Origin: an uncultured Thermodesulfobacteriota bacterium
GTDB taxonomy: Bacteria > Desulfobacterota > B13-G15 > RBG-16-54-18
NCBI GenBank assembly: GCA_964565525.1
Contig: CAZMFG010000002.1
Location: forward strand, 1-42,892
Direction: 5' to 3'
DNA: 42,892 nucleotides
The notes below the pieces were generated by a model. The model was not told the DNA's origin and did not search any database. It saw only the letters and a program-made list of their open reading frames with translations. The position numbers and the translations under genes are program-made. Positions 5,800 to 31,995 of the stretch are shown here, piece by piece. How positions within the stretch are numbered: position 1 is the first letter of the stretch; every line of letters starts with the position of its first letter.

Positions 5800-6963
5800 A
5801 TGATACCCCTTAAAAACATCAGGAGGATTTTTGCCAAGGCCTCTCAGCAGCCTGCCTATGCCTTACGAGCGGCCCGAATGCGGTTCTTATCCTCCTTGAG
5901 CTATCGCCTTCTCGATGGGAGGAGCGCCCCCCCTGAGACCATCTCCCTGCTGCTTACCTATCAATGTAATCTGCATTGCAAGATGTGCGGGCAGTGGGGG
6001 GAGCGGGGGAGCTTAAAAGATCTCCCCTCTGCCGTCACGAGGAGATATCTGGAGCTTCCGTTGATTGAGAGCCTTATCGAAGAAGTGAAGTCCTTTCACC
6101 CCACCATGACCCTTTTTGGTGGGGAGCCCCTGCTCCACCCACAATGGGGTGAGGTCGTCAAACTGATCAAGGGGGCCGGACTTCGCTGCAACATGATCAG
6201 CAACGGCATCCTGCTCAAGAAGAAGGCCGAGGAGGCGGTGCAACTGGGACTGGATGAGATCATCTTCTCCCTGGATGGTCCTGCCGGGGTGCACGATGCC
6301 ATCCGGGGGGGGAAGGGGGTCTTCCGCAGGGCTTTGGAGGGTTTCCAGCACCTCCAGACAGTGAAGGAGAGATATGGCAAAAAGAGGCCCGCGGTGAACG
6401 TCAACACGGTCATCTGGGAGGAGAACCACACGATGTTGGGTGATATCGTTGAGGAGGCGGCCCGGTTCGGGGCCCAGACCATCACCTTTCATCACCTCAT
6501 CTTCCTCGACCAGGCGGCCTTCAGGGAGACAGAGGCCATCACACAGGCGGCCCTCGCCTGCAATTCACCTGATTGGGGAGGGTTCGTCAGAGACGAGCTC
6601 CCTGGGATAGACCCGGAGCACATCATCGAGCAGAGGCGCACGATTGAACGGGGGAGGAACGCAATACCGGCCTTTTTTTATCCCAACTTCACCGATGAGG
6701 AGATCAGGGCGTACTATAGTTCTTTTGATTTTCTTCCCACCTCGTATAAGCGGAGGTGTCTGAGTCCTTGGATGGTGGCCTATGTGCTGCCGGATGGGAC
6801 AGTCAAGCCCTGCCTCAGCCTGGGGTATGTGATGGGAAACCTGCAAGAAGCCGGTTTTCAGGAGATATGGAACGGAGATCGGGCAATGCGGTTTCGCCGT
6901 CTCCTCAAAGAGAGGGGTTATTTTCCTGTCTGTCCCCGGTGCACGGAGTTTTGTAGGTTTTAA
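5800..6963 (+). CDS. radical SAM/SPASM-domain protein (rSAM-1)
   Basis: 387 aa with the CX3CX2C motif in LLLTYQCNLHCKMCGQWG and a GGEPLL SAM-binding segment. The Cys-rich C-terminus (RRCLSPW...VKPCLS...FPVCPRCTEFC) is typical of SPASM/twitch auxiliary cluster domains. Confidence 0.8.
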   Translation: MIPLKNIRRIFAKASQQPAYALRAARMRFLSSLSYRLLDGRSAPPETISLLLTYQCNLHCKMCGQWGERGSLKDLPSAVTRRYLELPLIESLIEEVKSFHPTMTLFGGEPLLHPQWGEVVKLIKGAGLRCNMISNGILLKKKAEEAVQLGLDEIIFSLDGPAGVHDAIRGGKGVFRRALEGFQHLQTVKERYGKKRPAVNVNTVIWEENHTMLGDIVEEAARFGAQTITFHHLIFLDQAAFRETEAITQAALACNSPDWGGFVRDELPGIDPEHIIEQRRTIERGRNAIPAFFYPNFTDEEIRAYYSSFDFLPTSYKRRCLSPWMVAYVLPDGTVKPCLSLGYVMGNLQEAGFQEIWNGDRAMRFRRLLKERGYFPVCPRCTEFCRF

Positions 6964-7041: not shown

Positions 7042-7203
7042 CTAGGAAGGACGAATAAGGGAACAATTACGCCAACCCTGTCGGCAATGGTTGCCAGCTG
7101 GGCCATCCATGTGCTGTTGCTTACACACCTGGAGCACTGCCTCCTCCGGCCTCCCTTTGACCAACACTACCAACTTGGGCTTTGTCCAGACCTTGGTTTT
7201 CAT
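7042..7203 (-). CDS. RiPP precursor peptide A1, 53 aa: MKTKVWTKPKLVVLVKGRPEEAVLQVCKQQHMDGPAGNHCRQGWRNCSLIRPS
   Basis: Translated by hand (ATG = rc of cat at 7201-7203; TAG = rc of cta at 7042-7044). The SD GGAGG lies 9 nt upstream. The 28-aa N-terminus is 26/28 identical to the second copy, and almost all nucleotide differences are synonymous in this frame. It was not in the ORF track (under 60 aa). Confidence 0.7.
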   Translation of the reverse strand: MKTKVWTKPKLVVLVKGRPEEAVLQVCKQQHMDGPAGNHCRQGWRNCSLIRPS

Positions 7204-7293
7204 CTTTTAGTGCCTCCGTGTTTTTAAGGCCTTAATCGCAACTTGTACGCCATCCAAACTATTACTTTATATCTGCATCAGATTACATGTTAC

Positions 7294-7302
7294 AGTATAT
7301 CA
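7294..7302 (-). promoter_or_regulatory. candidate extended -10 promoter element (TGaTATACT) for precursor A1
   Basis: The minus strand reads gatgTGATATACT. The identical 13-mer is conserved upstream of precursor A2 (9982-9994). It lies about 90 nt upstream of the ATG. Confidence 0.35.
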
Positions 7303-7463
7303 CATCTTTGTCATAGGGGGTAAGCAGTTTTTTGGTCATGGATGTTTACAGCAGTAACCCCCCTGCTAAAAAGCTTATGGCGGCTATCACTATATGGTAT
7401 ATATATGTGTCTGATCTTGCGTTCCTCAAAACGGTATTGTGCAGTACCGTCCGGCTACAGTGC

Positions 7464-8600
7464 TCATCCGTTCTGTCTGGGCATTAAGAGGGACAATAAA
7501 ATATCTTTTACGTCCTCGGTTTTATGTGGACGATACAGTTTGTCGGCCCAGTGTAACCGATTCATCAGCTCTTGACCTACCTCATGTCCTAACAATTGTT
7601 CCTTGTATGTCGAGAAAGAAAAATCTTTGTCCTTGAGCGCATGCATGATTGAGTTGGCTGCCACGTGACCGTACCCTAAGCTAAAGGATATCCCTTCACC
7701 CCACAAGGGATCAATTCCCGCGGCATCACCTACCAAGAGCACCCTGTTGGCTGAAAATATTGATGAGGGATGAAACCACCGTAGCTGACAGCCCTCAACC
7801 TGACTTTGATCTAGTGAAATACCCCGTGTGGCTAAAAACTCCCCAAGGATATTCCTGAGGAGAGGGATTTCCTTCCGAGAGGTGGAGAAACCACCGACGC
7901 CTATGTTCAGCCATGCTTGACCATGGAGTACCACCGGGAAGGACCAGGCATAGCCTCGAATCCCATGCCGGAATGCACACGAGAAGTCTATTTTTGCTTC
8001 CAACCTTCTTTGATCAGAAAGGTTAAAACTGTCGGCGCGCGTCATAAAACGCAGCGTCATACACGTGTTCCTTGGCCCCCGTATCCCTGCGTTTCTGCAC
8101 AGCATTCTGCGTATGATGCTTTGCGCACCATCGGCACCTACTAGGACGCGGGTAGTAAGGCTTCGCTTGGGAGTTTGTACGGCAACTGCTTCATCACGGT
8201 AAGAAAAGGAGGTCACCGGCTCGTTCTGAACAACTGAGATGCCCAGATCCAGTGCCATGTGAACTAACGCCTCATCGAATTCTTCTCGTATTACCGTCCG
8301 TAATCCGCCAATATCAAAGCAATATTCTACATAGTTATCATAATCAAAGACGAAGCACGTTCTTTTAAGCGCTAAGGAGGTTATAGTCATTGTGATGCCA
8401 AGACGCTGTAACCAGTAATCAGCATATACACTAATTCCGCCCCCACAGATCTTCTTTCGGGGGTGGGTTTTCTTCTCCAGGACTATCAGTCGATTTTTCA
8501 TTGGCGGCAGGAGCTTGCTCAGGTGTATGGCCGTCGAGATACCGGCAGGTCCTGAACCCACTACAATGACGTCATATTCAGTCTCTCTTGATCTGCCCAT
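7464..8600 (-). CDS. FAD-dependent oxidoreductase, geranylgeranyl reductase family
   Basis: 378 aa with the FAD motif YDVIVVGSGPAGISTA. The HPRKKICGGGIS and LLVGDAAGIDPLWGEGISFSLGYG segments match the pattern I associate with GGR/ChlP/BchP-type prenyl reductases. Confidence 0.75.
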   Translation of the reverse strand: MGRSRETEYDVIVVGSGPAGISTAIHLSKLLPPMKNRLIVLEKKTHPRKKICGGGISVYADYWLQRLGITMTITSLALKRTCFVFDYDNYVEYCFDIGGLRTVIREEFDEALVHMALDLGISVVQNEPVTSFSYRDEAVAVQTPKRSLTTRVLVGADGAQSIIRRMLCRNAGIRGPRNTCMTLRFMTRADSFNLSDQRRLEAKIDFSCAFRHGIRGYAWSFPVVLHGQAWLNIGVGGFSTSRKEIPLLRNILGEFLATRGISLDQSQVEGCQLRWFHPSSIFSANRVLLVGDAAGIDPLWGEGISFSLGYGHVAANSIMHALKDKDFSFSTYKEQLLGHEVGQELMNRLHWADKLYRPHKTEDVKDILLSLLMPRQNG

Positions 8601-8660: not shown

Positions 8661-9530
8661 CTAGGCCCTGTATGTTAAAGCGTATTGCAGGCCGATATGC
8701 TGTATGTCCTTTGAGGATATTTCATCTTCGATAAGGGAGAGGTTGACAGAGACAAAAGCAGTCTTGTATGACTGGCTCAGAATATAATTTAAGGTTTGCA
8801 CGTGGCTGTAAGCTAGGCTGAGCCGGCGGTTGTCCAGGAGGCGAATAAATCTGGTAGGGCTTCGCGGATGAAAATAAAATACACGCCCTCCATTACCCTG
8901 AAAGGAGATGTGCAAAAGGTTGCATTCCTTAATTAATTCCTGTGCGGCATCTCGAAGTTTGAGCTTGGCCATGAGTGTAGGACTATCGAGGTCCCGGCGA
9001 TCAAGGCAAGGATATATTTCTACGCCGGTTCTCCCGTCAAAATACAAATCAATCCCAAATACAAATTCCTCATGGACCAGGTAATCGCGGATGCCTTCAA
9101 GGGGAGGGTGTAAAGAGATGACCTGATCTACCTTTTCAGGGTATTCCCTGACCATGAGATAACACTTGACCTTCGAATCACTCATGTCCGCTTTATAATC
9201 CAGACCTACGCCGATCGCTATGACCCTTAATACATCGAGGTCATTGTTGACTATTTGACCCAGAATGTCACGGTTCAACAATACGTTTTTACACCCTGCG
9301 ATCTTGTTCAAGAGATCATATATTGCATGAAGGCCGCTTTGAATATCGCTTTGCTCATACCCAAACCTGAGCCTCGAGGCATGGGTGCCTTCGCAGGAGA
9401 TCTTGACTGAGCATTCCAACAGAGAACAAGGGGTTGTGGATAGTACTTCCTCAAAGAGTCGAAGAAATGAATGCTCTTTTAACCCGAACCCCTTCTTGTG
9501 GAAAGTATACACCTGAATTAATGGATTCAT
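8661..9530 (-). CDS. hypothetical protein with ABBA-fold prenyltransferase-like strand motifs (function is inferred)
   Basis: 289-aa ORF of clear coding quality. It has recurrent short beta-strand-like motifs with aromatic or basic residues: RLRFGYE, VIAIGVGLDY, KVKCYLMV, FVFGIDLYFD, GVEIYPCL, GRVFYFHP, FVSVNLSL and IGLQYAL. These are reminiscent of NphB/CloQ or cyanobactin LynF/TruF/PatF-type prenyltransferases. Its size fits that family, and its neighbour is a prenyl-reductase-family gene. Confidence that it is a real CDS is about 0.85; confidence in the function is about 0.35. Confidence 0.5.
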   Translation of the reverse strand: MNPLIQVYTFHKKGFGLKEHSFLRLFEEVLSTTPCSLLECSVKISCEGTHASRLRFGYEQSDIQSGLHAIYDLLNKIAGCKNVLLNRDILGQIVNNDLDVLRVIAIGVGLDYKADMSDSKVKCYLMVREYPEKVDQVISLHPPLEGIRDYLVHEEFVFGIDLYFDGRTGVEIYPCLDRRDLDSPTLMAKLKLRDAAQELIKECNLLHISFQGNGGRVFYFHPRSPTRFIRLLDNRRLSLAYSHVQTLNYILSQSYKTAFVSVNLSLIEDEISSKDIQHIGLQYALTYRA

Positions 9531-9732: not shown

Positions 9733-9894
9733 TCAGGTAGGAATCACCCGTTGACAAGCGGAACTATAGATCGTACAGTTGTTGACATTTGGACCGCTTC
9801 TGCCCGATGTCTTACACACCTGGAGTACTGCTTCCTCCGGCCTACCCTTAAACAATACTATCAACTTCGGTTTTGTCCAGACTTTGGTCTTCAT
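9733..9894 (-). CDS. RiPP precursor peptide A2, 53 aa: MKTKVWTKPKLIVLFKGRPEEAVLQVCKTSGRSGPNVNNCTIYSSACQRVIPT
   Basis: Translated by hand (ATG = rc of cat at 9892-9894; TGA = rc of tca at 9733-9735). The SD GGAGGG lies 7 nt upstream. It has the same length as A1, the same leader, and Cys at the same positions (27, 40, 47). It was not in the ORF track. Confidence 0.7.
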   Translation of the reverse strand: MKTKVWTKPKLIVLFKGRPEEAVLQVCKTSGRSGPNVNNCTIYSSACQRVIPT

Positions 9895-9981
9895 TTTTAC
9901 GCCCTCCACGTTTTTAACGTTATAAATGCCACAAATGCGCCATCAGAACTCTTATGTATAGCTGCACTGATTAACATATAG

Positions 9982-9990
9982 AGTATATCA
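9982..9990 (-). promoter_or_regulatory. candidate extended -10 promoter element (TGaTATACT) for precursor A2
   Basis: The minus strand reads gatgTGATATACT, identical to the element upstream of A1, and lies about 90 nt upstream of the ATG. Confidence 0.35.
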
Positions 9991-10078
9991 CATCCTCCTC
10001 TCCGACATAAGCAATTCTTTTTCACGGCGCCAAGACTGTTTGAGGTCTCATGGTATCCCTTTTAATCATAACTCCACG

Positions 10079-11221
10079 TTAGAGTTCCAAAGGCAGTAAA
10101 GGGGCTCTCGTTGTCTTAAGGGCTTTAGCCCTCGCGTGGGCAACCTGGCAGAAATAGGTTACCGGTGCATCCAATTCCCCGGTCTCAAGCGAGGCATGGG
10201 CAGGGCACCACATACAGAGGTTGATCAGGGGGCATACTTGACACGTCTCTAGAAAATCGGATCTCTCCGATCGCATAGCCCGTACCTGGGGGACAAAGTT
10301 CCGCCAGGCATCGGTGAGGGTTCCTTGTTTCAGGTCATAGACACAATCGGGGTGCCAGAGGGATGGGCAGAGCCGGAAGAGGCCGTCATAGCTGAGGCTG
10401 AAACTTGCGGTCCCCGCACCGCACCGCACGAGATGGTTCGAGGTAGTATGCGATAGCTGAGGAACGATTAAGGTATCGCACTCTTTTTCCAGGGCCTGAA
10501 ACCGCTCAGGGTCCGATTGCTCCAGGGCCACGATCTCTTCGGGAGAGAGCCTTTCGGCCTTTATCTCCGCATTTCTTGTCGGGTCCCCGTCATATCTCAG
10601 ATGTAAAAAGGGGTCAAAGCGGAAGCAGTCTTTTACTCTCTCTCTGCAGAAGCGGGCAATCGCCAGCTGTTCGTGGAGATTGGTGCGAAGGGCCATGGCC
10701 TTGAGGCGTACGTTAAGGCCGTTTCCGAGGAGTAGATCGAGCCCTCGACGAAAGGCTGCAAAGGAGCCTGCCTTGCGAGTAACCCTCTCATAGGATTCTT
10801 TGCTGACTCCATAGACCGAAACCTCGATATCCCTCGGTGGATATTCCTTGAATAATTTGATATGCGCTTTTGTTATCAATGTGGCATTGGTAAAGACCGA
10901 GATCAGAAGCCCCTTTTTTTTGAGTGAGAGATAGATATCAAAAAAATCCTCTCGCAGGAGGGGTTCACCTCCGGTGATGAGGCACCACAAGGCGCCAAGG
11001 GATACGGCCTCATTTACAATCTCTTTTATATCCTCACATGAGAGTTCCCTTTTTTTGACCTCCTTATCCCCAGCCGGAAGATTGATGTAACAGTGACGAC
11101 AGTGGTTGTTGCACCGGGCGGTGATCTCCAGGTCAAAAGAGATCAGCCCCCTTCTTTTTCTCATCTTTTCCCAGAGGGGGAGATCGTGTAAGTCGGCGGA
11201 TGAAACATAGGATTCACGCAC
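10079..11221 (-). CDS. radical SAM/SPASM-domain peptide-modifying enzyme (rSAM-2)
   Basis: 380 aa with CX3CX2C in EITARCNNHCRHCYINLP and a GGEPLL segment. It has a C-terminal SPASM-like Cys array (RCGAG...LCPS...CVYD...CQVCPLINLCMWCPAH...FCQ). It is a paralogue of rSAM-3, and its start overlaps the peptidase stop by 8 nt. Confidence 0.85.
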   Translation of the reverse strand: MRESYVSSADLHDLPLWEKMRKRRGLISFDLEITARCNNHCRHCYINLPAGDKEVKKRELSCEDIKEIVNEAVSLGALWCLITGGEPLLREDFFDIYLSLKKKGLLISVFTNATLITKAHIKLFKEYPPRDIEVSVYGVSKESYERVTRKAGSFAAFRRGLDLLLGNGLNVRLKAMALRTNLHEQLAIARFCRERVKDCFRFDPFLHLRYDGDPTRNAEIKAERLSPEEIVALEQSDPERFQALEKECDTLIVPQLSHTTSNHLVRCGAGTASFSLSYDGLFRLCPSLWHPDCVYDLKQGTLTDAWRNFVPQVRAMRSERSDFLETCQVCPLINLCMWCPAHASLETGELDAPVTYFCQVAHARAKALKTTRAPLLPLEL

Positions 11222-11774
11222 CGGGCCGCCTCCTTATTATTATGAAGCGGGCAAACCTCCAGATGGGGCCTAGCAAGGGTAAGAGCCTCCAACGGGTCAA
11301 GAAGGCTATGATAAAACGATCTGGGCCGAGGCCGAAAGGGGGCTCCTCCCCGTTTCTCTCTACTTTGATAACACGCCCGAGGATGTTTGCCTTGGCGATA
11401 AACCCATCAGCCTCTGGGATATTATCCCCTTTGGTGAGGTAAGCATCCGCCCTTTTTCCGACTACCCGGTGGATGATGAGCTTGCAGGTACTCGGATGGG
11501 TGAAGACCACCACATCACCGAAACGGGGGTCAGCTCCCTGCACAGGGGCAATAGTGAGGACATCGCCATCCTTGATAAAGGGGGACATGCTAAAACCCTT
11601 GCACCGAAACCTGAAGGACGCCCCCTTGTCAAGCACGCCCCTCATGAGTTCCTCAAGGTGTTGGCTGTAAAGAGATAACTCCTCCCTCTTCTTGACAAAG
11701 AGGGCTGGCTTAACTTGCATGTCAGGTGAGGTGACCATTAAAGCAGGTTTTATATCACTTCTTTGAGGCTTCAA
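11214..11774 (-). CDS. S24/S26-family serine peptidase (signal peptidase I / SipW-like motifs), candidate leader peptidase
   Basis: 186 aa with a KGFSMSPFIKDGDVL box (Ser nucleophile), a KLIIHRVVGK box (His/Lys general base) and a YLTKGDNIPEADG box. The C-terminal segment FIIAFLTRWRLLPLLGPIW is hydrophobic. It overlaps the PqqD gene by 20 nt. Confidence 0.7.
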   Translation of the reverse strand: MKPQRSDIKPALMVTSPDMQVKPALFVKKREELSLYSQHLEELMRGVLDKGASFRFRCKGFSMSPFIKDGDVLTIAPVQGADPRFGDVVVFTHPSTCKLIIHRVVGKRADAYLTKGDNIPEADGFIAKANILGRVIKVERNGEEPPFGLGPDRFIIAFLTRWRLLPLLGPIWRFARFIIIRRRPGA

Positions 11775-12066
11775 CGATCATCTTCCTCTTGAGGAGTTCT
11801 TTTGCAAGGCCGATCACATCCCGCTCGATCTCGCCGTCCGGTGCCTCATACTCCGTAGCGAGTTCCTCAGCCACCGCCTTCAAGCTCTTTGTGCCGTCCA
11901 GTTTTTCCCACATGGCCCTGCCAGTCTCATTTAGGGTAAAGAGTTCGTCCTCCATATCCCCCATGCCGGCAACAAGGGGGACGATGATGAGTTCTCCCTC
12001 AATCTCCCTGCATACCAGGTCCTCCGATGGGACGTAGGCGGCGTCAAATTTGACCTTTGAGTCCAT
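11755..12066 (-). CDS. PqqD-family peptide chaperone (RiPP recognition element protein)
   Basis: 103 aa. The pattern ...VCREIEGELIIVPL...FTLNETGRAMWEKLDGTKSLKAVAEELATEYEAP...ERDVIGLAKELLKRKMI is typical of stand-alone PqqD/RRE proteins. It is flanked by rSAM/SPASM genes. Confidence 0.8.
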   Translation of the reverse strand: MDSKVKFDAAYVPSEDLVCREIEGELIIVPLVAGMGDMEDELFTLNETGRAMWEKLDGTKSLKAVAEELATEYEAPDGEIERDVIGLAKELLKRKMIVEASKK

Positions 12067-13288
12067 TACAGACCTCCTTTGTGTGGCGAGTGAAGTGAGT
12101 TGTGGCGATAAAAATTTGTATCCTTTCTTTCCAGTTCCTTATCTGCCAGGCCTGCTCGCCTTCTTCAAGCAGCCCCAAGACCCGTGCCTGCGCATGGGCG
12201 ACCTCGCAGAGGTAGTCAACCGGTGTGTCCAAGGTCCCGTGCTCCATCCACGACCAGGCCGGGCACTGTTCGCAGAGGCCCTTCAGAAAGCAGTTGGCAC
12301 AGCGGGTGAGGTAATCACGGTTTTTGGCTTTCCTCTGCCTTATTCTTGGAAAGAAATTCGTCATGGCATCTTTGAGTGAGCCTTTTTTTAGATCATAAAC
12401 GGTGTCTGGGTGCCTCAGCAACATGCATGGTTGGAGATAACCGTAGGCATCGACACATCCGCTCCTCACCCCTGCGCCGCAGGAGAAGATGTTTGTCCCC
12501 GATGGCCTGGCAAACATAGAACAGAATTCCCGCATCTCTTTCAGGTATTTCTCTTGCCTCCTGGAAAAGAATGTTATTACATCCTCAGGTGAGGGTCTGA
12601 GCCCCTTGATAAGGATGTTCTTTTTGCTCGAGTCCCGGCGTGCGCGAAGATCGAGTAAAAGGGTATAAGAGGGTGCTGTGTCCATCCAGGGGATGGTGGA
12701 GGCCCACGATTCAAATTCCTCTATTTCTTCTTTGTTAGGTGGGAGAAGCGCACCCGTGACCACAAACGGGACCTGATATTCTAATAACAAATGCGTACCG
12801 CTCCACGCGGCTTCAAAAGAACCCGCGATTCTAGTGATTGCCTCATAGGAGTTCCTCGTCATTCCGTAGAGGGTAATTTCGATAGGCATGAGGGGTGGGG
12901 TGCGCCCAAATACCTTGGCCAGCGTTGGTGTAATCAATGTGGCGTTGGTGCAGATCGTCACCCGCAGGCCGAGCCTGCGGGCAAAGATATAGAGGTCTTC
13001 AAAATCTTCCCTCAAGAGGGGTTCCCCCCCTGTGAACCTTACTGTGAGACAGCCGAGGGAAAGGGCCTCTTGGAGGATCTCCTGTATCTCTCCTGTCGAC
13101 AGTTCCCTTTTTTGGGCATGACGATCGTCCGCAGGGAGATTTATATAACAGTGGATACAGTTGTTGTTGCAGCGTTCGGTGAGCTCCATGTCGAGTGAGT
13201 TAAGAGCAGTGGTATTCCCCTTCCCGACGGAGACCCCATCGTCCTTTATCTTTACTACAATATAAGAATCTTTAATGACCATCCTCAC
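12044..13288 (-). CDS. radical SAM/SPASM-domain peptide-modifying enzyme (rSAM-3)
   Basis: 414 aa with CX3CX2C in ELTERCNNNCIHCYINLP and a GGEPLL segment. It has a SPASM-like array (SCGAG...CVDAYGYLQPC...RCANCFLKGLCEQCPAW...LCE). The start codon is uncertain (GTG at 13288 or ATG at 13282). Confidence 0.85.
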   Translation of the reverse strand: MRMVIKDSYIVVKIKDDGVSVGKGNTTALNSLDMELTERCNNNCIHCYINLPADDRHAQKRELSTGEIQEILQEALSLGCLTVRFTGGEPLLREDFEDLYIFARRLGLRVTICTNATLITPTLAKVFGRTPPLMPIEITLYGMTRNSYEAITRIAGSFEAAWSGTHLLLEYQVPFVVTGALLPPNKEEIEEFESWASTIPWMDTAPSYTLLLDLRARRDSSKKNILIKGLRPSPEDVITFFSRRQEKYLKEMREFCSMFARPSGTNIFSCGAGVRSGCVDAYGYLQPCMLLRHPDTVYDLKKGSLKDAMTNFFPRIRQRKAKNRDYLTRCANCFLKGLCEQCPAWSWMEHGTLDTPVDYLCEVAHAQARVLGLLEEGEQAWQIRNWKERIQIFIATTHFTRHTKEVCNGLKGQI

Positions 13289-13336: not shown

Positions 13337-14317
13337 TCAAAGGTGCCTTAAGAGGTCTGTTACCCCTCCATCTTTATTAAAGTGAAGGGTATAGCAGGGA
13401 ACTTCATGAGCCATCGTATTCATTAATGCAAGCATTTTCTCCCACCACTCGGCTGTAACCAAAGGTTTTATCAGACAAGCCAAGAGGATCTTGATGATAT
13501 CCTGCGTGTGGTCCATATGGATGAGTTGGTTTCCCCGGTCCTGTTTCAGAAAAAGAATGGCCTTCAACGGCGCGGAATCTGCCGAAACATCAGGAATATC
13601 GCCATGACTCCAGGTCCCGTGGATCTTGAAACCCTCCGGCCACCTTCTTACAATCATCCGGTCATCGCACAGAATCTTTGCCTTACCCTGCATCATCATC
13701 ACCATGGTGGATTTGCCCGCATTGGAATGTCCCACGAAAAGGAGTCCTTTGCCGTCAAGCACTACGCCGCTTGCATGGATATAACACCCTCCCCGTTCAG
13801 CCAGAAGTTGGGCGAGGATGACCTGATCAGTTGGAAAGAGGGTGAGGGAAGGGATATTGCCCCTGTGGAAAGGCCTCTCAGTTTTATTATATATCTTGAC
13901 CGTTCTACGGTTCATTATCGCCAGTTGGTGGATATCCCTTTCTTGAACAAGGCGTGGACGCGTGAAACTTCCCCCATTTGTTTTCTTACGAGATCTTGGA
14001 TAGAGGCGGCGCCATAGTCGTTTAATCGGTTCCCATGTGCCCCCCGGGACAACCACGTAGATCCAGCAAGGCCCCTTTCTGTAAATGACCCACGGGGGCC
14101 TCCGATAGACCTCGTCAGCCATATCCAAGCTGGTCAGAGGTGGTAGGGAGAAGTGGTGCCTGATGGTTATGGTATCCTTTCCAGGTCTATCCACTTCAAA
14201 GAGTCTGAACTTGGGGTGGAAGGTCGTATCGGTGATGGGTAAGTCCGATACCATCTTTATAGTGATACCGGCAATGTGATAATAGCGGCGGTCTAAGACC
14301 CGGGGTTTTTCAGTCAT
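13337..14317 (-). CDS. HPr kinase/phosphorylase-related P-loop kinase (HprK C-terminal-domain-like)
   Basis: 326 aa. The segment IHASGVVLDGKGLLFVGHSNAGKSTMV...ILCDDRMIV matches the HprK catalytic-domain pattern (hG..v..kGvLl.G.SG.GKS....L..DD). Confidence 0.7.
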   Translation of the reverse strand: MTEKPRVLDRRYYHIAGITIKMVSDLPITDTTFHPKFRLFEVDRPGKDTITIRHHFSLPPLTSLDMADEVYRRPPWVIYRKGPCWIYVVVPGGTWEPIKRLWRRLYPRSRKKTNGGSFTRPRLVQERDIHQLAIMNRRTVKIYNKTERPFHRGNIPSLTLFPTDQVILAQLLAERGGCYIHASGVVLDGKGLLFVGHSNAGKSTMVMMMQGKAKILCDDRMIVRRWPEGFKIHGTWSHGDIPDVSADSAPLKAILFLKQDRGNQLIHMDHTQDIIKILLACLIKPLVTAEWWEKMLALMNTMAHEVPCYTLHFNKDGGVTDLLRHL

Positions 14318-14469: not shown

Positions 14470-15300
14470 TCACATAAAGGTGTCCCTCAGGAGCTTTATA
14501 CACTTCCACAGCCTATCGCCGATGACGCTGAAGGAAAAACCCTTAGGGAAGAATATCTCCTGTAGGGCTTTTCCTTTATGTTTTGACTGAAAGAGAAAAA
14601 GAAGGTCACCGAAATTTTGATTGAACGTTCCCCCCTTTATTTTTTTCAGAATCCATCGTTCTCCAATGGAGAGATTCCCTTTCCAGGATGGGAAAATATC
14701 CGGGTACAGGAAGCTGAGATAGACAAGGGTGTGCTCAGCACCCATCCGTTTTGCCTCGGCGCGTATCGCTTCATCAGAGAGCTGATAGTATTTTTGTATC
14801 CTGGTCAGATCTTTCCACCCCTTCTCAGATCCGAAAGAGTGGCTCTGGAGGTGGATGACCGTGGAGATAAAGAGGTGCTCCGGGCAAGGGATCTTTATCT
14901 CTAGTGCGTCTAATTGCTTGGTGATGCCTTGTTGAAAGACCTCATCCATAGAGACCGTCAGGCAAGCGTTCGCCAGGGCTGTGCGGATAGGGGTGAGGAA
15001 GGAGGTGTGCAGGTCGAGGGAGAGGCCGTTCCTATAGAAGACCCCCGGTTCCGCCTCCTGCCATTTCAATTCCCGTAAGACCCCTTTGAGCTGTTCCACC
15101 TCCCGTTCCCGGACCATGATGTCCACATCGAGCATCCCCCGATCCCCCAGCTCGGGGTAAACATCTCCCAGAAGGCTTATTCCTCTGAAGAAGATAACCT
15201 CAGGGCCCGTCTTTTGTAGCCGTTCCGTCACCTCCCGCAGGTGGTGGATGAGGATGAGATTCTGGGAGGCCGTTTGGTAAAAGGTGAGTTCCCGCTTCAT
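14470..15300 (-). CDS. nucleotidyltransferase family protein (PF14907/NTP_transf_5-like)
   Basis: The ORF track gives 14470-15351. I prefer the ATG at 15300 (MKRELTFYQ...), which forms an ATGA overlap with the upstream glycosyltransferase stop. Motifs are GMLDVDIMV and LSLDLHTSF. Confidence 0.6.
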   Translation of the reverse strand: MKRELTFYQTASQNLILIHHLREVTERLQKTGPEVIFFRGISLLGDVYPELGDRGMLDVDIMVREREVEQLKGVLRELKWQEAEPGVFYRNGLSLDLHTSFLTPIRTALANACLTVSMDEVFQQGITKQLDALEIKIPCPEHLFISTVIHLQSHSFGSEKGWKDLTRIQKYYQLSDEAIRAEAKRMGAEHTLVYLSFLYPDIFPSWKGNLSIGERWILKKIKGGTFNQNFGDLLFLFQSKHKGKALQEIFFPKGFSFSVIGDRLWKCIKLLRDTFM

Positions 15301-16424
15301 CCGCTTTCCCCTGAGACCTCGTGGTAGAGGTCGATGGTCCTTTGAAGGCACACGTTCCAGTCGAAGAGGGCCTCTGTTCGCTTCCTCCCCTTCGCTCCCA
15401 TCTCCTTCCTCAGTCGGGATGAGTTAAGGAGTGCGATGGCCTCCTGTGCCATCCTCGTTGTATCTCCAGGTCCTACCAGGACGCCCCCGTCACCAACCAC
15501 CTCGGGGAGCCCCCCGACGGCCGTCGCCACGATGGGCTTGGCGGAGGCCATGGCCTCTACCGCGGCCAAGTTGAATCCGTCGTTCAGGGATGGGATGAGC
15601 ATAATATCAAAGGCAGCGATGAGGTCGGGGATGTCCTCTCGATACCCTAAAAAGTGGAAGCCCGAGATGCCCTCGGCCATCTTCAGAAGCCCTTCTTGCA
15701 TCGGACCATCCCCCACCATGACGAAGTGGGCCTTTGGGTAAGCGGCCTTTATTTTTTTGGCAGCCTCCACAAATCGATCAGGCCCTTTTATCTCTTCCAT
15801 TCTCCCCACAAAGCCTACGACAGGTACCTGTTGTGCTATCCCCAACTCAGTTCTCACCTTTTTACCTTCTCCTGGGAAGCGTTGTATATCTATTCCATTG
15901 TAGATGGTAATTACTCTTTTTTCGTCGCCGATCCCCTTATTCAGGTATGCCCTGCGTTCGTCCTCGGAGATGGTGATAATCCGCCCACAGAATCTGGCAG
16001 CCAGACGCTCGAGAAAGACGTAGAGCCGCTCTTTCCCTGTGCCGAAATATCCATAGAATAGATGGCCGTGGGGTGTGTGGATGGTCTTGGTGCGGGTTAT
16101 CCGTCCTGCTATCCTTCCTAAAATCCCTCCCTTGGTGGTGTGGGTGTGGAGGAGCGCCGGCCGCTCTCTGCGGATGAGGGCGCAGATCTCAAAGAAGGAA
16201 AGGAGATCATGCAAGGGGGCGATATCGCGGCGCAGATGGGGGAGGAGGTGATAAGAAATATTGAGCCTCTGAGAGAACCCCCAGGGGTCTTCTTCGGGTT
16301 GCTGAGAAGGGCCGGAGGACATAACGATCTCTATACCCAGTTCCGTGAGTCCTCTGATCAGTTGGAGGAATACCCGGGGTGCGCCGCCCTTATCGAGTCT
16401 CGTTATCAGCTGTAAGACCTTCAC
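15297..16424 (-). CDS. glycosyltransferase family 4 (GT-B, group 1)
   Basis: 375 aa with a DGFNLAAVEAMASAKPIVATAVGGLPEVV (EX7E-type) C-terminal domain. The GTG start overlaps the upstream stop (GTGA). Confidence 0.85.
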   Translation of the reverse strand: MKVLQLITRLDKGGAPRVFLQLIRGLTELGIEIVMSSGPSQQPEEDPWGFSQRLNISYHLLPHLRRDIAPLHDLLSFFEICALIRRERPALLHTHTTKGGILGRIAGRITRTKTIHTPHGHLFYGYFGTGKERLYVFLERLAARFCGRIITISEDERRAYLNKGIGDEKRVITIYNGIDIQRFPGEGKKVRTELGIAQQVPVVGFVGRMEEIKGPDRFVEAAKKIKAAYPKAHFVMVGDGPMQEGLLKMAEGISGFHFLGYREDIPDLIAAFDIMLIPSLNDGFNLAAVEAMASAKPIVATAVGGLPEVVGDGGVLVGPGDTTRMAQEAIALLNSSRLRKEMGAKGRKRTEALFDWNVCLQRTIDLYHEVSGESG

Positions 16425-17470
16425 CCGCCCTTTTCTCTCTTCATCCTGCGGTTGGCAGCGATTTCCAAGATGGTCGCAAAGGAGAGGATGACCAGGGCCT
16501 GCAGGAGGAGGATCCAGAAGTAGTCCGGCGCCATCTTGATCAATAGGGCGTTCATGCCCAAGGCGATGGTCAGGAGGTAGATGGCGAGCACCGTCTTGGT
16601 CTTTGATCCCAAGAGGTAATGAAGCCGGTGGTGGAGGTGGTCCTTCCCCGTGTATTCGATGAGTTCGCGCACGTTATGCACTTCCCTCATAATTATCCTG
16701 CGCACGTTGATATAGGCCATGTCATAGATGACCACGGCAAAGATCAACAGCGGGGCGGCGAGGGAGGGGAGGAGCATTTCCTCCGACCACTCGGCCATGA
16801 TGGCGAGGGAGGCGAGAACGAAACCCAAAAAGTTGCTCCCCGTATCCCCGAGAAAGATACTCGCCCCCTTCTCCCCACGAAAGTTATAGGGGATAAAGCC
16901 GATACAAGTACCGAGGATAAACAGACAAAGAGGTACCATGGAGAACGACCCCATTTGGAGGAAGACGATGGAGAAGAGGCAGGAGAAGATGATGCAGAGA
17001 CCCGCTGCCAATCCGTCCATTCCGTCGATGAAGTTGACGGCATTGGTAATTCCCACCAGCCAGAGGACCGTGAGGGTATAATTGAGGGCATAACCCCACC
17101 AGGCCTTGGGGAAGATGGTAGCGCTCACACCAAAGGAGATGAGGATGCAGGCGGCCACGATCTGGGAAACAAACTTTGTCACGCCAGGCAACTCGTGCGC
17201 GTCGTCTCCGACCTCCACTACAAAGATGAAGCTTGCGGCGATCAGGAGGCCCAAAATCTGTCCCGAGGGTTTGGTGAATACCAGCGCCGATATGATGAAA
17301 GCGGTGAAGATGGCCCACCCCCCGGTCTTGGGGGTGGGGACGGTATGGACCCTGCGTTGTGCGGGGATATCCATAAAACCCCATTTTTTCCCTAACCACC
17401 TTGCCAGTGGGGTGAGGATAAGGGAGAGGAAAACGGGGACGATGAGGGGCGGAAGGAATTCTTCAAGCAT
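16421..17470 (-). CDS. MraY/WecA-family polyprenyl-phosphate N-acetylhexosamine-1-phosphate transferase
   Basis: Multi-TM protein with NAVNFIDGMDGLAAG and VHTVPTPKTGG motifs. I place the start at ATG 17470 (MLEEFLPP...), an 8-nt overlap with the upstream stop. The ORF-track extension to 17644 runs inside the aminotransferase gene. Confidence 0.8.
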   Translation of the reverse strand: MLEEFLPPLIVPVFLSLILTPLARWLGKKWGFMDIPAQRRVHTVPTPKTGGWAIFTAFIISALVFTKPSGQILGLLIAASFIFVVEVGDDAHELPGVTKFVSQIVAACILISFGVSATIFPKAWWGYALNYTLTVLWLVGITNAVNFIDGMDGLAAGLCIIFSCLFSIVFLQMGSFSMVPLCLFILGTCIGFIPYNFRGEKGASIFLGDTGSNFLGFVLASLAIMAEWSEEMLLPSLAAPLLIFAVVIYDMAYINVRRIIMREVHNVRELIEYTGKDHLHHRLHYLLGSKTKTVLAIYLLTIALGMNALLIKMAPDYFWILLLQALVILSFATILEIAANRRMKREKGG

Positions 17471-18515
17471 GTCTATCCTCGACGGCCCTCCTGAAGCAGA
17501 AGGCAATATGTCGCACCTCATCCGCCGTAAGGCGCGGATAGAGGGGGAGGGAAAGGGCCTCTGCATAGACCTTTTCACTCGCCTCGAAGCCGTTGAGGCC
17601 GAGATAACGATGGAGGGGGCAAAAGACGGGACGCTGGGCCTCAATACCTTGGCGATGCAACCGCGCTATGACTTGATCAAGGTCTCCCCCCTTGATTCTT
17701 ACTACATACCGGTAATATATTCCCCCCGGCCGCGGCACGATCACTCCCTCAAGCCCTCTTATGAGTTTGTCGTACAATTGAGCTCGGTCCATTCTTTGTT
17801 CGAGAAAGAAGGGGAGTTTCCCTAACTGTATATTCCCCATCCGTCCCTGCAAGTCGGTCATGCAAAAATTATACCTTACTTTGTAATCATCTTTTTTGTC
17901 ATACTCGCGCAGATCTTTTACCCGTTCCAGGATTTTCTCGTTCCGGGAGGCTACCATCCCTCCCTGGCCGGTGGTGATGACCTTGGTGGCGTAAAAGGAG
18001 AACATGGCGGCTGTGCCCCAAGACCCCGTCATCCTTCCTCCATAGGTTGCCCCCAGGGATTGTGCGCAGTCCTCTATGACGGGTGGACCCAAGGCGAGAA
18101 AATCGTCCATATCTTCTACGGGATGTCCGAACATGTGGGGGATGATAATGGCGGCGGTCTTCTTGGTGAGGGCCTTTTTGGTCGCCGAGATGGAGATGTT
18201 CATATGCCCCTCATCGATGTCCACTATCGTGGGGACAGCGCGGCAATGGTGTACGGCATTGAGGAGGGCGCTGCAGGTAAAGCTGGGGATGATTACCTCA
18301 TCCCCCTCTTTGACCCCGAGGGCCAATAAGGTGAGGTGCAAGGCAGCGGTTCCTGATGCGATAGCTACCGCCCCACTGAGACCCAGGTATGAGGCCATCT
18401 CCCGTTCAAATCCCTCCACCTGTTCACCGGTGGCGATCCACCCAGTGGCGAGGACTTCTTGGAGACCTTCGATCTCCTCTCTCCCCAGGGTGGGCATGGA
18501 ATGGGTTATGTTCAT
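17463..18515 (-). CDS. DegT/DnrJ/EryC1/StrS-family PLP-dependent sugar aminotransferase
   Basis: 350 aa with ...AIASGTAALHL... and FSFYATKVITTGQGGMV (PLP-lysine region). Confidence 0.85.
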   Translation of the reverse strand: MNITHSMPTLGREEIEGLQEVLATGWIATGEQVEGFEREMASYLGLSGAVAIASGTAALHLTLLALGVKEGDEVIIPSFTCSALLNAVHHCRAVPTIVDIDEGHMNISISATKKALTKKTAAIIIPHMFGHPVEDMDDFLALGPPVIEDCAQSLGATYGGRMTGSWGTAAMFSFYATKVITTGQGGMVASRNEKILERVKDLREYDKKDDYKVRYNFCMTDLQGRMGNIQLGKLPFFLEQRMDRAQLYDKLIRGLEGVIVPRPGGIYYRYVVRIKGGDLDQVIARLHRQGIEAQRPVFCPLHRYLGLNGFEASEKVYAEALSLPLYPRLTADEVRHIAFCFRRAVEDRHA

Positions 18516-19123
18516 GGCAAGAAGTAACGGAGGGGTGCAAAACCTTCGGCAAAGGTCACCCTGGCCTGGGTGCCCCGGAAGCGGGCCGTCGCGATGGCGA
18601 TGTCAACGATATTGGAGCCGGGGATGTTGGTCTTATGAAATTGAGATGTGTGGGCCTCCAGGCATTTGATCTTTTCCTCCAACGTCTCGCCGATGTCTGC
18701 GAATAACAGGGGATTGAAGCCGATGGACGTCGGGGTCTCATAGAAGATGACCTTGGGCGTATACCGGGAAGCGGAGATGGTAGCCTTGGCGAGACGCTCG
18801 TGGTCCTGATGGGTATCCTCGGGATAGTTCACCAAGATCAAAGAGGGTTTTATATCCCGCATAAATCCCTCCAATAGGTCTATCAAGGGCTTGTCGAAGA
18901 TGATGAGGGTGTCTTTGTATCCCCCCCAGAATAGTTCTTTAGACCCCAGTATCTCGGCGGCCACCTCTTGTTCCCGCTGTCTCACCTGTGGATCTCCGCC
19001 CATGCCTCCATCAGCGACTACTAAGAGATAAATTTCATCCCCTTTGTTTCTGTATTGGGCGAGCGTGCCGGAACACCCAAATTCGATATCGTCGGGGTGG
19101 GCCCCGATGGCTAATACTTTCAT
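18512..19123 (-). CDS. PIG-L/LmbE-family N-acetylglucosaminyl deacetylase
   Basis: 203 aa with the N-terminal MKVLAIGAHPDDIEFGCSGT motif. ATGA overlaps occur at both ends. Confidence 0.85.
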   Translation of the reverse strand: MKVLAIGAHPDDIEFGCSGTLAQYRNKGDEIYLLVVADGGMGGDPQVRQREQEVAAEILGSKELFWGGYKDTLIIFDKPLIDLLEGFMRDIKPSLILVNYPEDTHQDHERLAKATISASRYTPKVIFYETPTSIGFNPLLFADIGETLEEKIKCLEAHTSQFHKTNIPGSNIVDIAIATARFRGTQARVTFAEGFAPLRYFLP

Positions 19124-23065: not shown

Positions 23066-23072
23066 GGATGTG

Positions 23073-28150: not shown

Positions 28151-28153
28151 ACT

Positions 28154-31989: not shown

Positions 31990-31995
31990 GATGCT

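Follow-up and report, generated by a model that had tools for sequence, protein, structure and literature searches.

On comparative sequence evidence, the minus-strand open reading frame of 53 codons at 9733..9894 of the window (the whole stretch of DNA that was analysed, 42,892 nucleotides in length), here called A2, is a real coding gene under selection and a member of a large unannotated peptide family, and with A1 (7042..7203, minus strand) it makes up a pair of old paralogues feeding one maturation cassette. We put at about 0.75 the probability that A2 truly encodes a RiPP precursor on which this cassette acts; its product would most likely be cross-linked at Cys, modified at the C-terminal Ser/Thr and lipidated. 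The locus carries the generic parts of a RiPP precursor system, namely a short ORF with start codon and ribosome-binding site, a conserved leader followed by a variable core, and adjacent maturases with a recognition element. A2 was assigned from its translation, dN/dS, 19 close homologues (P0001-P0019) and intact homologous frames, and A1 from its translation and from orthologues at the same position in four related loci (L002, L005, L007 and L010).

Both genes were re-translated; each encodes exactly 53 aa, and the translations were those of the preliminary description. On the minus strand, the A2 leader comprises codons 1-28 (9811-9894), the core codons 29-53 (9736-9810) and the stop codon positions 9733-9735. 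The ATG at 9894 was taken as the start in preference to a GTG at 9909, which would give a 58-aa ORF, because a GGAGG precedes the ATG by 8 nt and all homologues begin M-K/E-x-K-x-W. This ribosome-binding site (9903..9907, minus strand), read from the sequence, is found at equal distance in most close homologues, and A1 is preceded by a GGAGG of its own (7213..7217, minus strand). A promoter-like 13-mer, GATGTGATATACT, with the form of an extended -10 element (TG-n-TATACT), is located 88 nt upstream of the A2 ATG (9982..9994, minus strand), and an identical 13-mer lies upstream of A1 (7294..7306, minus strand). It occurs exactly twice in the window, once ahead of each precursor gene, for a chance expectation of 0.05, and TGNTATAMT was present at equal distance from the gene in nine related loci, which is consistent with a function as a promoter element. 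A weak terminator-like match was seen at 9734-9750.

The coding frame was assessed by a codon-by-codon recount of leader codons 1-28 of A1 and A2, which reproduced the earlier figures of 11 differing codons, nine of them synonymous and changed at position 3 only, and two conservative replacements, V12I (GTA/ATA) and V15F (GTC/TTT). At the nucleotide level, 12 of 84 positions differ; ten of these are third and two are first codon positions, and the second position never changes (binomial P = 5e-4). Nei-Gojobori counts for the leader were sd 10 over S 17.8 versus nd 2 over N 66.2, corresponding to a dN/dS of 0.03 (Fisher P = 8e-7); in the core, dN/dS was ~1.25 and is saturated. The mean leader pN/pS was 0.18 over 210 pairs from 21 close homologues. 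The purifying signature reported for the minus-strand frame was thus recovered, whereas the accompanying statement that plus-strand ORFs do not share it does not strictly hold: over the leader segment, ORF 9779-9925, whose third (wobble) positions coincide with those of the A2 leader frame, has 9 synonymous and 3 non-synonymous changes. Pairwise substitutions by themselves do not dispose of this one antisense frame, and the ORF was excluded only because the antisense frames are broken in orthologues while the sense frame is intact.

For this comparison, 49 distinct homologous genes were used. The antisense frame of ORF 9779-9925 was stop-free in four of them, and all three antisense frames were interrupted by stops in 28. 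Antisense coding at A2 was rejected: it mimics the synonymous pattern, yet is closed in orthologues. Frameshifts or stops in orthologues, which the preliminary description had named as evidence that would count against the frame, were not encountered in the 45 short, well-assembled genes, all of which kept the start, the stop and the terminal Ser/Thr. Four genes with automatic calls of more than 70 aa (L021, L026, L036 and L029) had been set aside. In L036 the peptide is 76 aa long and retains the C-terminal Ser; in L029 it is 57 aa long and ends in Ser, the overlong call being a start-codon artefact; in L021 and L026 the frame is lost past the leader, and these two were not counted as evidence against it because adjoining genes are fragmented in both assemblies as well. 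The proposition that A2 is no gene at all, that is, a duplicated regulatory or non-coding element, or a shadow of a true gene on the plus strand (ORF 9751-9981 or 9779-9925), can draw on the 9:3 ratio in the antisense frame. Against it stand the closure of the antisense frames, the retention of ribosome-binding site and length along with start and terminal residue in the same 45 short genes, the absence of any Rfam match in the window at gathering thresholds, and the folding of the A1 and A2 flanks, where a search for a structured 5' UTR or an intrinsic terminator gave folds no better than shuffled sequence (z +0.5 to -1.2). Its probability is negligible, and it is already refuted by the comparative data.

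A2 was then compared with A1 and with the wider family. The two cores share G34, P35, N38, C40, C47, P52 and Ser/Thr at 53, as well as an aromatic residue at 43/44 (W44 in A1, Y43 in A2), all as first described; P35, P52 and the aromatic residue mark this clade and are not family-wide. The Cys scaffold C27/C40/C47, proposed from the two paralogues, was invariant in an alignment of 18 sequences, and its pattern holds over 182 family peptides. The family motif reads W-x-K-P-x-L...EEAVLxxC-K, then G-P-x2-N-N-C, then C-x5-[S/T] at the C-terminus. Among the 182 peptides, the leader W-x-K-P and E-E and the C-K are invariant, a Cys is found at position -7 in 155, and the last residue is Ser or Thr in 177 (45 of 45 in the intact locus peptides). 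C-K, G-P-x2-N-N-C ahead of the first core Cys and the terminal C-x5-[S/T] occur family-wide, as do two to four further Cys past the conserved C-K; the core is 20-41 residues long and most of its positions vary freely. A homology search returned 2,302 family representatives from bacteria and archaea at E <= 1e-3, and 53 genomic loci were collected from Thermodesulfobacteriota, Omnitrophota, Acidobacteriota, Thermoleophilia, Chloroflexota, Chlorobiaceae, Verrucomicrobiota and methanogens. Two divergent paralogues per genome were also seen in relatives. NCBIfam gave no match for A1, A2 or a Chlorobiaceae homologue and Pfam none for A1 or A2, and full-text searches of the literature accessible outside subscription found no description of the family.

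The architecture of a conserved leader joined to a variable core was borne out by DNA identities between A1 and A2 of 86% in the leader versus 43% in the core, and the cassette adjoins such a peptide in >40 loci from many phyla. The further description of the family as diversifying is only suggested: pN/pS of the core was 1.3-1.9 for orthologues of the A2 type, a value above 1 that rests on very small counts (2-4 synonymous changes), and 0.3-0.4 for close orthologues of the A1 type.

A1 and A2 share the maturation cassette of a single minus-strand gene string that runs from 15351 to 7042. A2 directly follows genes for two radical SAM/SPASM enzymes, a PqqD-family protein and a peptidase, and the next gene downstream encodes a prenyltransferase. 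In the direction of reading, the string comprises an NTP_transf_5 'uncharacterised nucleotidyltransferase' (14470..15351; PF14907 at 9e-23); a ScmC-like P-loop protein with a predicted HprK/PEPCK kinase fold (13337..14317; sub-threshold matches to TIGR04249, TIGR04355 and TIGR00679); radical SAM/SPASM enzyme 1 (12044..13288; domain matches); the PqqD-family protein, a predicted leader-binding RiPP recognition element (11755..12066; PF05402 at 1e-14); an S24/S26 peptidase akin to archaeal/ER signal peptidase I, which is the candidate enzyme for leader removal (11214..11774; PF00717, and TIGR02228 at 58.9 bits, above the cutoff of 51.85; motifs GFSMSP and IIHRV); radical SAM/SPASM enzyme 2, whose gene borders A2 on the upstream side (10079..11221; PF04055, with generic SPASM-family matches far below curated cutoffs); and, between A2 and A1, an ABBA-type peptide prenyltransferase of the LynF/TruF/PatF family, DUF5838 (8661..9530; TIGR04445, PF19156 and PDB matches) and a geranylgeranyl-reductase-family flavoenzyme (7464..8600; TIGR02032 at 3e-38), all on the minus strand. 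Synteny of the cassette is kept in L002-L017. Across 59 loci, which include some contigs counted twice, the ScmC-like protein was present in 46, PqqD in 45, the S24 peptidase in 44, NTP_transf_5 in 28 (distant phyla included), and the prenyltransferase and the reductase each in the same 16. Close relatives also keep a third radical SAM/SPASM gene (5800-6963, plus strand) in synteny, but L012 and L017 lack it, and it was left out of the system for that reason. Next to the cluster is a polysaccharide locus in which polyprenyl carriers are used. Domain searches of the cluster genes found neither an exporter nor an immunity gene, and the product may therefore work within the cell or at its membrane.

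Among known systems, SynChlorMet has an equal parts list (an HprK-like ScmC, a PqqD homologue and two radical SAM/SPASM enzymes) and a similar phyletic spread through syntrophic deltaproteobacteria, Chlorobi and methanogens, and homologues of the window's ScmC-like protein carry the precomputed annotation PF27840 'ScmC'. It differs in that the curated models TIGR04248-TIGR04251 were all missed widely: ScmC (TIGR04249) scored 39.4 bits against a cutoff of 125, and ScmD, ScmE and ScmF scored 19.4, 78.8 and 77.1 bits against 100, 400 and 400. The cutoffs were also missed in the Chlorobiaceae and Methanospirillum loci, and the distant loci L034 and L050 stayed below 100 bits. Membership in the curated SynChlorMet cassette was ruled out on these model scores, and the A1/A2 cassette was classed as a sister system because the thresholds are missed with distant family loci included. 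The SynChlorMet description reportedly left its precursor without identification.

The proposed maturation of A2 would begin with binding of the leader (W6-x-K-P-K-L-I-V-L...E20-E21-A-V-L) by the PqqD-type protein, which would present the peptide to both radical SAM/SPASM enzymes; of the individual steps, we hold this one to be highly probable. The two enzymes would then cross-link the invariant Cys intramolecularly, most likely through sactionine- or ranthionine-type thioethers, to which we give an even chance. The locus resembles those of ranthipeptides and sactipeptides (thermocellin/CteB, freyrasin/PapB, subtilosin/AlbA) in placing a short Cys-containing precursor beside radical SAM/SPASM maturases that require a recognition element, and conserved candidate donor Cys are present in the core (C27/C40/C47). 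CteB forms a Cys-Thr S-C-gamma thioether in thermocellin (PMC11002830). No orthologue of a characterized thioether synthase was recognized: searched against curated sactipeptide and ranthipeptide maturase models, both enzymes scored far below cutoff (StsB 75-78 versus 625 bits, PapB 48-53 versus 340, AlbA 58 versus 850), and they resemble only generic SPASM relatives (MoaA, PqqE, BlsE, SkfB and SuiB). An assignment of the chemistry by homology to solved structures was abandoned, similarity to PDB entries being generic only. The cluster also differs from those systems in that PqqD is a separate protein and in its additional genes, which encode a protein with a kinase fold, a nucleotidyltransferase, a peptidase of the S26 type, and the prenyltransferase with the reductase. 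One link would probably close a 7-residue C-terminal ring or otherwise involve the terminal residue, because the spacing C47-x5-T53 is fixed across the family; the ring taken by itself is rather unlikely. The S26-type peptidase would cut off the leader; a plausible site is the bond that joins residue 26 to Cys27, proposed because it fits the Leu at -3 (180 of 182 peptides) and the small residue at -1 (A, V, G, T or S before C27); this step is put forward tentatively, at somewhat less than even odds.

At the C-terminus, the ScmC-like protein would act on the hydroxyl of the invariant Ser/Thr in the manner of the HprK-like kinases that act on lasso-peptide precursors, and the NTP_transf_5 enzyme may subsequently build on that phosphate; argued by analogy, this pair of steps falls just short of an even chance. 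In lasso precursors, the C-terminal Ser is the target of the kinases PadeK and PsmK, and the resulting phosphate receives a hexose from PsmN, itself an uncharacterised NTP transferase (PMC6993621; PMC8498205). The likeness to paeninodin (PadeK) and pseudomycoidin (PsmK/PsmN), made from their descriptions, lies in a precursor that ends in Ser and an HprK-family kinase that works on the terminal hydroxyl, set beside a near-invariant terminal Ser/Thr and a recurring pair of HprK-fold protein and NTP_transf_5 in the present family. The HprK similarity of the window's protein is remote, which sets it apart from the lasso kinases, and no domain match to a lasso cyclase (Asn-synthetase-like) or B1/B2 protease was obtained among the cluster genes. 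The ScmC-like protein has invariant Walker A (GHSxAGKST) and CDDR (DD) motifs; of 40 homologues, all matched ScmC (below threshold) and HprK_rel_B, and 36 matched HPr(Ser) kinase. An AF2 model built with a 40-sequence alignment (pLDDT 84; the single-sequence model, at pLDDT 33, was unusable) matched ATP-PEPCK and HprK/P in Foldseek at query TM-scores of only 0.3. PEPCK outscored HprK, and Pfam Hpr_kinase_C was sub-threshold; the relationship to HprK is remote, and the protein may do something other than phosphorylate the peptide. Searches found 1,270 homologues, and among the 120 matches listed the proteins were unnamed, 'hypothetical' or, where fused, named only for their radical SAM domain.

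These properties of the enzymes bear on the reading that A2 is a real precursor whose Cys are not thioether donors: they might serve in disulfides or in metal binding, or the radical SAM enzymes might introduce some other modification (C-C or C-O cross-links, epimerisation, methylation), with the ScmC-like protein an ATP-dependent accessory or scaffold and not a kinase for the terminal Ser/Thr. Such an outcome would agree with radical SAM enzymes that show no specific affinity to any characterized thioether synthase, with a ScmC-like fold closer to PEPCK than to HprK, and with the fusion of ScmC to a third radical SAM/SPASM domain in many lineages, which suggests that ScmC works within a radical SAM module. 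It is harder to reconcile with a core in which the sole invariant side chains are Cys and the terminal hydroxyl residue, with the fixed C-x5-[S/T] spacing, with the invariance of the Walker A and DD motifs, and with the recurrent pairing of kinase and nucleotidyltransferase, as in pseudomycoidin. We consider it unlikely, if still a serious competitor to thioether formation and C-terminal phosphorylation.

Only in this Thermodesulfobacteriota clade are the two precursor genes separated by those for the prenyltransferase and the reductase; here the F-family prenyltransferase would attach an isoprenoid to the peptide, which we judge probable; the geranylgeranyl-reductase-like flavoenzyme would then saturate it, a possible step that we rate at rather below even. 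The prenyltransferase matched TIGR04445 at 2e-34 (119 bits, under the cutoff of 140) and PF19156 at 97.7 bits (over the gathering score of 28.8), and its PDB matches were 8ye0, LimF, PirF and PagF at 1e-28 to 1e-19. The reductase reached 132 bits with TIGR02032 for a cutoff of 158.8 and co-occurs strictly with the prenyltransferase (16 of 16 loci). Candidate prenyl acceptors are the core Trp and Tyr, because every core of the prenyltransferase clade has one or the other (20 of 20, versus 16 of 23 elsewhere; P = 0.01 with phylogeny ignored). The enzyme is homologous to the ABBA peptide prenyltransferases of cyanobactins (PagF, LynF, PirF, LimF), its membership of the F family following from PF19156 and the PDB matches, and to the lanthipeptide prenyltransferase MppC; prenylation is known for RiPP classes beyond cyanobactins (PMC12715784). 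Unlike in those systems, its context is radical SAM/SPASM enzymes and not PatA/PatG proteases or lanthionine synthetases, its host is an uncultured anaerobic Thermodesulfobacteriota bacterium, and it is strictly paired with the flavoenzyme. PatA/PatG-type protease or macrocyclase domains were absent from the cluster genes, and the precursor is unrelated to PatE. Literature searches returned no RiPP precedent for the pairing of a prenyltransferase with a geranylgeranyl-reductase-like enzyme. It is quite unlikely that the two enzymes act on a lipid or small molecule and that their location between A2 and A1 is incidental: the sub-cutoff NCBIfam score and the polyprenyl carriers of the adjoining polysaccharide locus would fit such a substrate, but all PDB relatives are peptide prenyltransferases, precursor genes flank the pair on both sides, the pair was inside the cassette in all 16 of its loci and never apart from it among the 59, and all 20 associated cores contain Trp or Tyr.

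A different role for the mature product was considered as well, in which A1 and A2 would give rise to a peptide-derived cofactor or another intracellular factor, in the way that PqqA yields PQQ and MftA mycofactocin, and not to a secreted diversifying product. The parts list is that of PQQ (PqqA/D/E) and mycofactocin (MftA/B/C/E), with a short peptide, a PqqD chaperone, radical SAM/SPASM enzymes and a peptidase; strict anaerobes, methanogens among them, carry the family widely, its scaffold positions are rigidly conserved, the cluster is without transporter or immunity gene, and the leader W-x-K-P resembles that of PqqA. The present family differs from both systems in a core that is variable in length and at most positions and that occurs as two divergent paralogues per genome, and in invariant residues that are Cys and a terminal Ser/Thr and not Glu/Tyr or Val-Tyr. 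Tailoring genes also change with lineage (prenyltransferase and reductase in one, elsewhere a methyltransferase or one more radical SAM enzyme), and the equivalog models were not reached (PqqE 55-59 bits versus a cutoff of 381, MftC 71-73 versus 265). We regard a cofactor precursor as improbable in comparison with a RiPP precursor.

The RiPP reading would assign a concrete substrate to a widespread cassette of two radical SAM/SPASM enzymes, PqqD, an S26 peptidase and an HprK-fold protein, and it offers testable features in the three invariant Cys, the C-x5-Ser/Thr end, the kinase/nucleotidyltransferase pair and the clade-specific prenyltransferase/reductase pair. In its most far-reaching form, the A1/A2 family would be the unrecognised substrate of ScmC-type cassettes and would define a new RiPP class, in which a radical SAM enzyme forms a C-x5-Ser/Thr ring from Cys to the C-terminal residue, the HprK-fold kinase and NTP_transf_5 install a phospho- or phosphoglycosyl C-terminus, and, in this clade, the cyanobactin-type prenyltransferase and the geranylgeranyl-reductase-like enzyme supply a saturated isoprenoid; as a whole this is rather unlikely. 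We know of no ribosomal peptide that carries such a lipid. If it were true, radical thioether chemistry, C-terminal phospho-modification and reduced-isoprenoid lipidation would be combined in one pathway, the tailoring enzymes would be new tools for peptide engineering, and the saturated isoprenoid could anchor the peptide in the membrane beside the adjoining polysaccharide machinery. With one leader and two cores, A1 and A2 provide a natural test of the substrate tolerance of the cassette.

The second precursor gene, A2, was translated from the minus strand at 9733–9894 as MKTKVWTKPKLIVLFKGRPEEAVLQVCKTSGRSGPNVNNCTIYSSACQRVIPT (53 aa) and its paralogue A1 from the minus strand at 7042–7203 as MKTKVWTKPKLVVLVKGRPEEAVLQVCKQQHMDGPAGNHCRQGWRNCSLIRPS (53 aa). 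Codon recount of the two leaders (codons 1–28) gave 11 differing codons, nine changed synonymously at the third position and two carrying the conservative replacements V12I and V15F, and so reproduced exactly the lengths and counts of the preliminary description. The 12 nucleotide differences were located at position 3 (10), position 1 (2) and position 2 (0) (binomial P = 5e-4). Nei-Gojobori counting yielded 10 synonymous differences over 17.8 sites and 2 non-synonymous differences over 66.2 sites, and the leader dN/dS that had been proposed as a check was 0.03 (Fisher P = 8e-7). DNA identity between A1 and A2 was 86% in the leader and 43% in the core (codons 29–53). Since leader synonymous sites are near saturation (dS ~1), the duplication is old and leader constancy reflects protein-level selection; recent gene conversion as its cause was ruled out by the same value.

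The purifying signature had been assigned to the minus-strand frame and denied to the plus-strand ORFs antisense to A2 (9751–9981, 76 aa; 9779–9925, 48 aa). The assignment stood; the denial failed for 9779–9925, an antisense frame that shares its third positions with the A2 sense frame and mimics the signature with 9 synonymous and 3 non-synonymous changes over the A1/A2 leader segment, so that the pairwise pattern alone cannot separate sense from antisense. Frames were compared in 49 distinct homologous genes from 59 homologous loci and the window. The antisense frame of 9779–9925 was stop-free in only 4 of the 49, and 28 had stops in all three antisense frames. In the sense frame, all 45 short homologous genes kept an ATG with GGAGG ~8 nt upstream and encoded 51–67 residues with the stop directly after a terminal Ser or Thr. 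Four genes were left out of this short set: two (L021, L026) lost the frame downstream of the leader, neighbouring genes in both assemblies being likewise fragmented, one (L036) encoded 76 aa with the terminal Ser retained, and one (L029; 57 aa with terminal Ser) was left out through a start-codon artefact. Mean leader pS was 0.64 and pN 0.11 across 21 close homologues. With the third-position recount upheld, the sense frame intact in all 45 short genes, the antisense frames mostly closed and leader pN far below pS, neither of the two outcomes named as grounds for abandoning the reading (a faulty alignment, a broken sense frame) was found. The original observation is confirmed and its interpretation supported: A2 is a genuine paralogue encoding a RiPP precursor. 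Both plus-strand ORFs were rejected as genes and considered antisense artefacts, antisense frames being closed in most homologues.

A word-indexed search returned 19 close homologues (40–58 aa), all unnamed or 'hypothetical', and scanning a single genome for each species gave 53 loci in Thermodesulfobacteriota, Omnitrophota, Acidobacteriota, Thermoleophilia, Chloroflexota, Chlorobiaceae, Verrucomicrobiota, Methanospirillum and Methanoregulaceae. Among 1.84 billion representatives, a profile search recovered 2,302 proteins at E <= 1e-3. The open full-text literature searched and the curated libraries contained no account of this family. The family motif was derived from 182 distinct peptides anchored on the invariant Cys-Lys, with the leader [W]-x-[KR]-P-x-L-x-V-L-x-[RK]-x-x-P-E-E-A-V-L-x-x-C-K and, relative to the first core Cys, G-P at −6/−5 and N-N at −2/−1. 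The last residue was Ser or Thr in 177/182 family peptides and in 45/45 intact locus peptides. A2 matched at every element (C27-K28-x5-G34-P35-x2-N38-N39-C40-x6-C47-x5-T53), so the proposed Cys27/Cys40/Cys47 scaffold is real and family-wide, as is the hydroxyl residue at the C-terminus; of the other core residues listed as shared, P52 and the 43/44 aromatic proved clade-specific. The fixed C-x5-[S/T]-end spacing (codons 47–53; A2 9736–9756, A1 7045–7065, minus strand), with the final Cys exactly six residues ahead of the last residue in 153 of the 182 peptides, is new information beyond the preliminary description. Because it is fixed despite core lengths from 20 to 41, this spacing suggests chemistry linking the last Cys to the terminal residue, either a ring or a coupled modification.

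Among A2-type orthologues pN/pS was 0–0.07 in the leader and 1.26–1.85 in the core (the latter from only 2–3.5 synonymous changes); for A1-type cores it was 0.28–0.38 among close orthologues and ~1 against the more distant copy in locus L002. Of the 'diversifying' family that had been proposed, the conserved leader and variable core held, and the A2-type ratios would fit, without proving, a core whose evolution outside the scaffold is relaxed or diversifying.

A2 sits within one minus-strand gene string running from the NTP_transf_5 nucleotidyltransferase (14470–15351) through the ScmC-like protein (13337–14317), radical SAM/SPASM 1 (rSAM1, 12044–13288), PqqD (11755–12066, directly overlapping rSAM1), an S24/S26 peptidase (11214–11774) and radical SAM/SPASM 2 (rSAM2, 10079–11221) to A2, then a LynF/TruF/PatF-family peptide prenyltransferase (8661–9530), a geranylgeranyl-reductase-family flavoenzyme (7464–8600) and A1 (ending at 7042). 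The peptidase carried the motifs GFSMSP and IIHRV and, at 58.9 bits, exceeded the curated threshold for archaeal-type signal peptidase I (51.85 bits). An extended −10-like 13-mer, GATGTGATATACT, occurred exactly twice in the window (9982–9994 and 7294–7306, minus strand; 0.05 expected), 88 nt upstream of the A2 ATG and 91 nt upstream of the A1 ATG, and nine related loci had TGNTATAMT equally far upstream; going by this consensus match, A1 and A2 probably each have their own promoter.

Co-occurrence was determined by tblastn and iterative HMM searches of window proteins against the 59 loci (some being the same contig twice). Homologues of the ScmC-like protein were present in 46, of PqqD in 45, of the peptidase in 44 and of NTP_transf_5 in 28, distant phyla among them; rSAM1 and rSAM2 homologues were both in most. 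Prenyltransferase and reductase occurred in the same 16 loci, never one alone, all from a close Thermodesulfobacteriota/Desulfobacterales clade. In L002, L005, L007 and L010, genes of the A1 and A2 types occupied the positions they have in the window, where they flank the prenyltransferase-reductase pair, whereas in L009 (9442–10165), L011 (8050–8456) and L014 (327–993) two precursor genes lay in tandem upstream of the prenyltransferase. The tailoring set varies among close relatives, since some carry, between rSAM1 and PqqD, an extra gene absent from the window: a methyltransferase in L002 (6955–7797), L003 and L004, or a small radical SAM/SPASM gene in L005 (6973–7800) and L006. A third radical SAM/SPASM gene of the window (5800–6963, plus strand, convergent with A1) was syntenic in close relatives (75–87% identity) and missing from L012 and L017; it matched TIGR04317, a tungsten-cofactor oxidoreductase maturase, best (104 bits vs cutoff 380).

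The cluster abuts a large polysaccharide locus (15297–19803, minus strand; 20613–42575, plus strand). The minus-strand part encodes WbqC, PIG-L, DegT, a WecA-like GT and a GT4; the plus-strand genes scanned (20613–33015) include Wza-like, Wzc-like, Wzy, flippase, glycosyltransferase and methyltransferase genes. First of the latter, divergent from the minus-strand genes, is a 578-aa AAA_22/HD_5 protein (20613–22349), which may be a regulator. PIG-L, DegT, WbqC and WecA-like genes were also found beside the cassette in two distant loci (L017, L018), which makes a functional tie to sugar or polyprenyl chemistry possible.

rSAM1 and rSAM2 aligned over the full length of SPASM-family models, rSAM2 with a Cys-rich SPASM pattern at its C-terminus; against models of characterised maturases both fell far short of every cutoff, and their PDB matches were generic (MoaA, PqqE, BlsE, SkfB, SuiB). 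Thioether formation would be the leading guess, solely because Cys are the invariant core side chains; in thermocellin a Cys-Thr thioether is made by a radical SAM enzyme (PMC11002830). The prenyltransferase was clearly homologous to solved peptide prenyltransferases (8ye0, 7.5e-28; LimF, PirF, PagF). The flavoenzyme contained K-I-C-G-G and Y-A-W-S-F-P...G-V-G-G, which resemble two motifs of archaeal geranylgeranyl reductases, the catalytic-Cys motif and YxWxFP. A core Trp or Tyr was present in 20/20 peptides of the prenyltransferase clade vs 16/23 elsewhere (P = 0.01, ignoring phylogeny); these residues are candidate prenyl acceptors in that clade. Prenylated lanthipeptides and lasso peptides have been reported (PMC12715784); in the literature searched, neither a prenylated radical SAM RiPP nor a peptide prenyltransferase paired with a geranylgeranyl reductase was found.

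In architecture the cassette comes nearest to Haft's SynChlorMet system. None of the four curated SynChlorMet equivalogs reached its cutoff, either in the window or in the Chlorobiaceae and Methanospirillum family members; membership was rejected on this ground, and by these models the window cassette is a sister of SynChlorMet. With sactipeptide/ranthipeptide pathways it shares donor Cys, a recognition element and radical SAM/SPASM enzymes, and its F-family prenyltransferase resembles that of cyanobactin tailoring; it also recalls paeninodin/pseudomycoidin tailoring, where an HprK-like kinase and a nucleotidyltransferase accompany a terminal Ser. Domain searches of the cluster genes returned no core enzyme that defines lasso peptides or cyanobactins. 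That the A1/A2 product serves a cofactor-type role, as in PQQ or mycofactocin, is a minority reading, in keeping with a cluster without exporter and a family common in anaerobes but at odds with cores that vary, paralogues that diverge and tailoring genes that differ by lineage.

The detailed chemistry of the A2 product, as a modified RiPP, is what we infer. Homologues of the ScmC-like protein numbered 1,270 at E <= 1e-5; the 120 listed were unnamed, 'hypothetical' or, for fusions, named for the radical SAM domain only, and they carried Pfam PF27840. GHSxAGKST (Walker A) and CDDR were invariant. Sub-threshold matches to ScmC (TIGR04249) and HprK-related kinase B were obtained for 40/40 aligned members, to HPr(Ser) kinase for 36/40 and, weakly, to Pfam Hpr_kinase_C for 31/40. 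Foldseek of an alignment-based AlphaFold model (pLDDT 84, pTM 0.80) retrieved ATP-dependent PEP carboxykinases (E ~1e-7) and HprK/P structures (E 3e-5 to 1e-4, target TM ~0.5), P-loop kinase families with one common fold. The domain, stand-alone in the window, was fused to a third, N-terminal radical SAM/SPASM domain (590–740 aa) in many distant lineages (L018, L022, L031–L034, L044, L045, L050, L055; e.g. L034 1530–3521). There is precedent for kinases of the HprK family in making peptides: PadeK and PsmK phosphorylate the C-terminal Ser of lasso precursors, and PsmN, which bears the annotation 'uncharacterised NTP transferase', attaches hexose to this phosphate (PMC6993621; PMC8498205). By this analogy, and because in this family a near-invariant terminal Ser/Thr goes together with an HprK-fold P-loop protein and, recurrently, with an 'uncharacterised nucleotidyltransferase', the favoured role of the ScmC-like protein and NTP_transf_5, at slightly under even odds (about 0.45), would be phosphorylation of the C-terminal Ser/Thr, possibly followed by further decoration.
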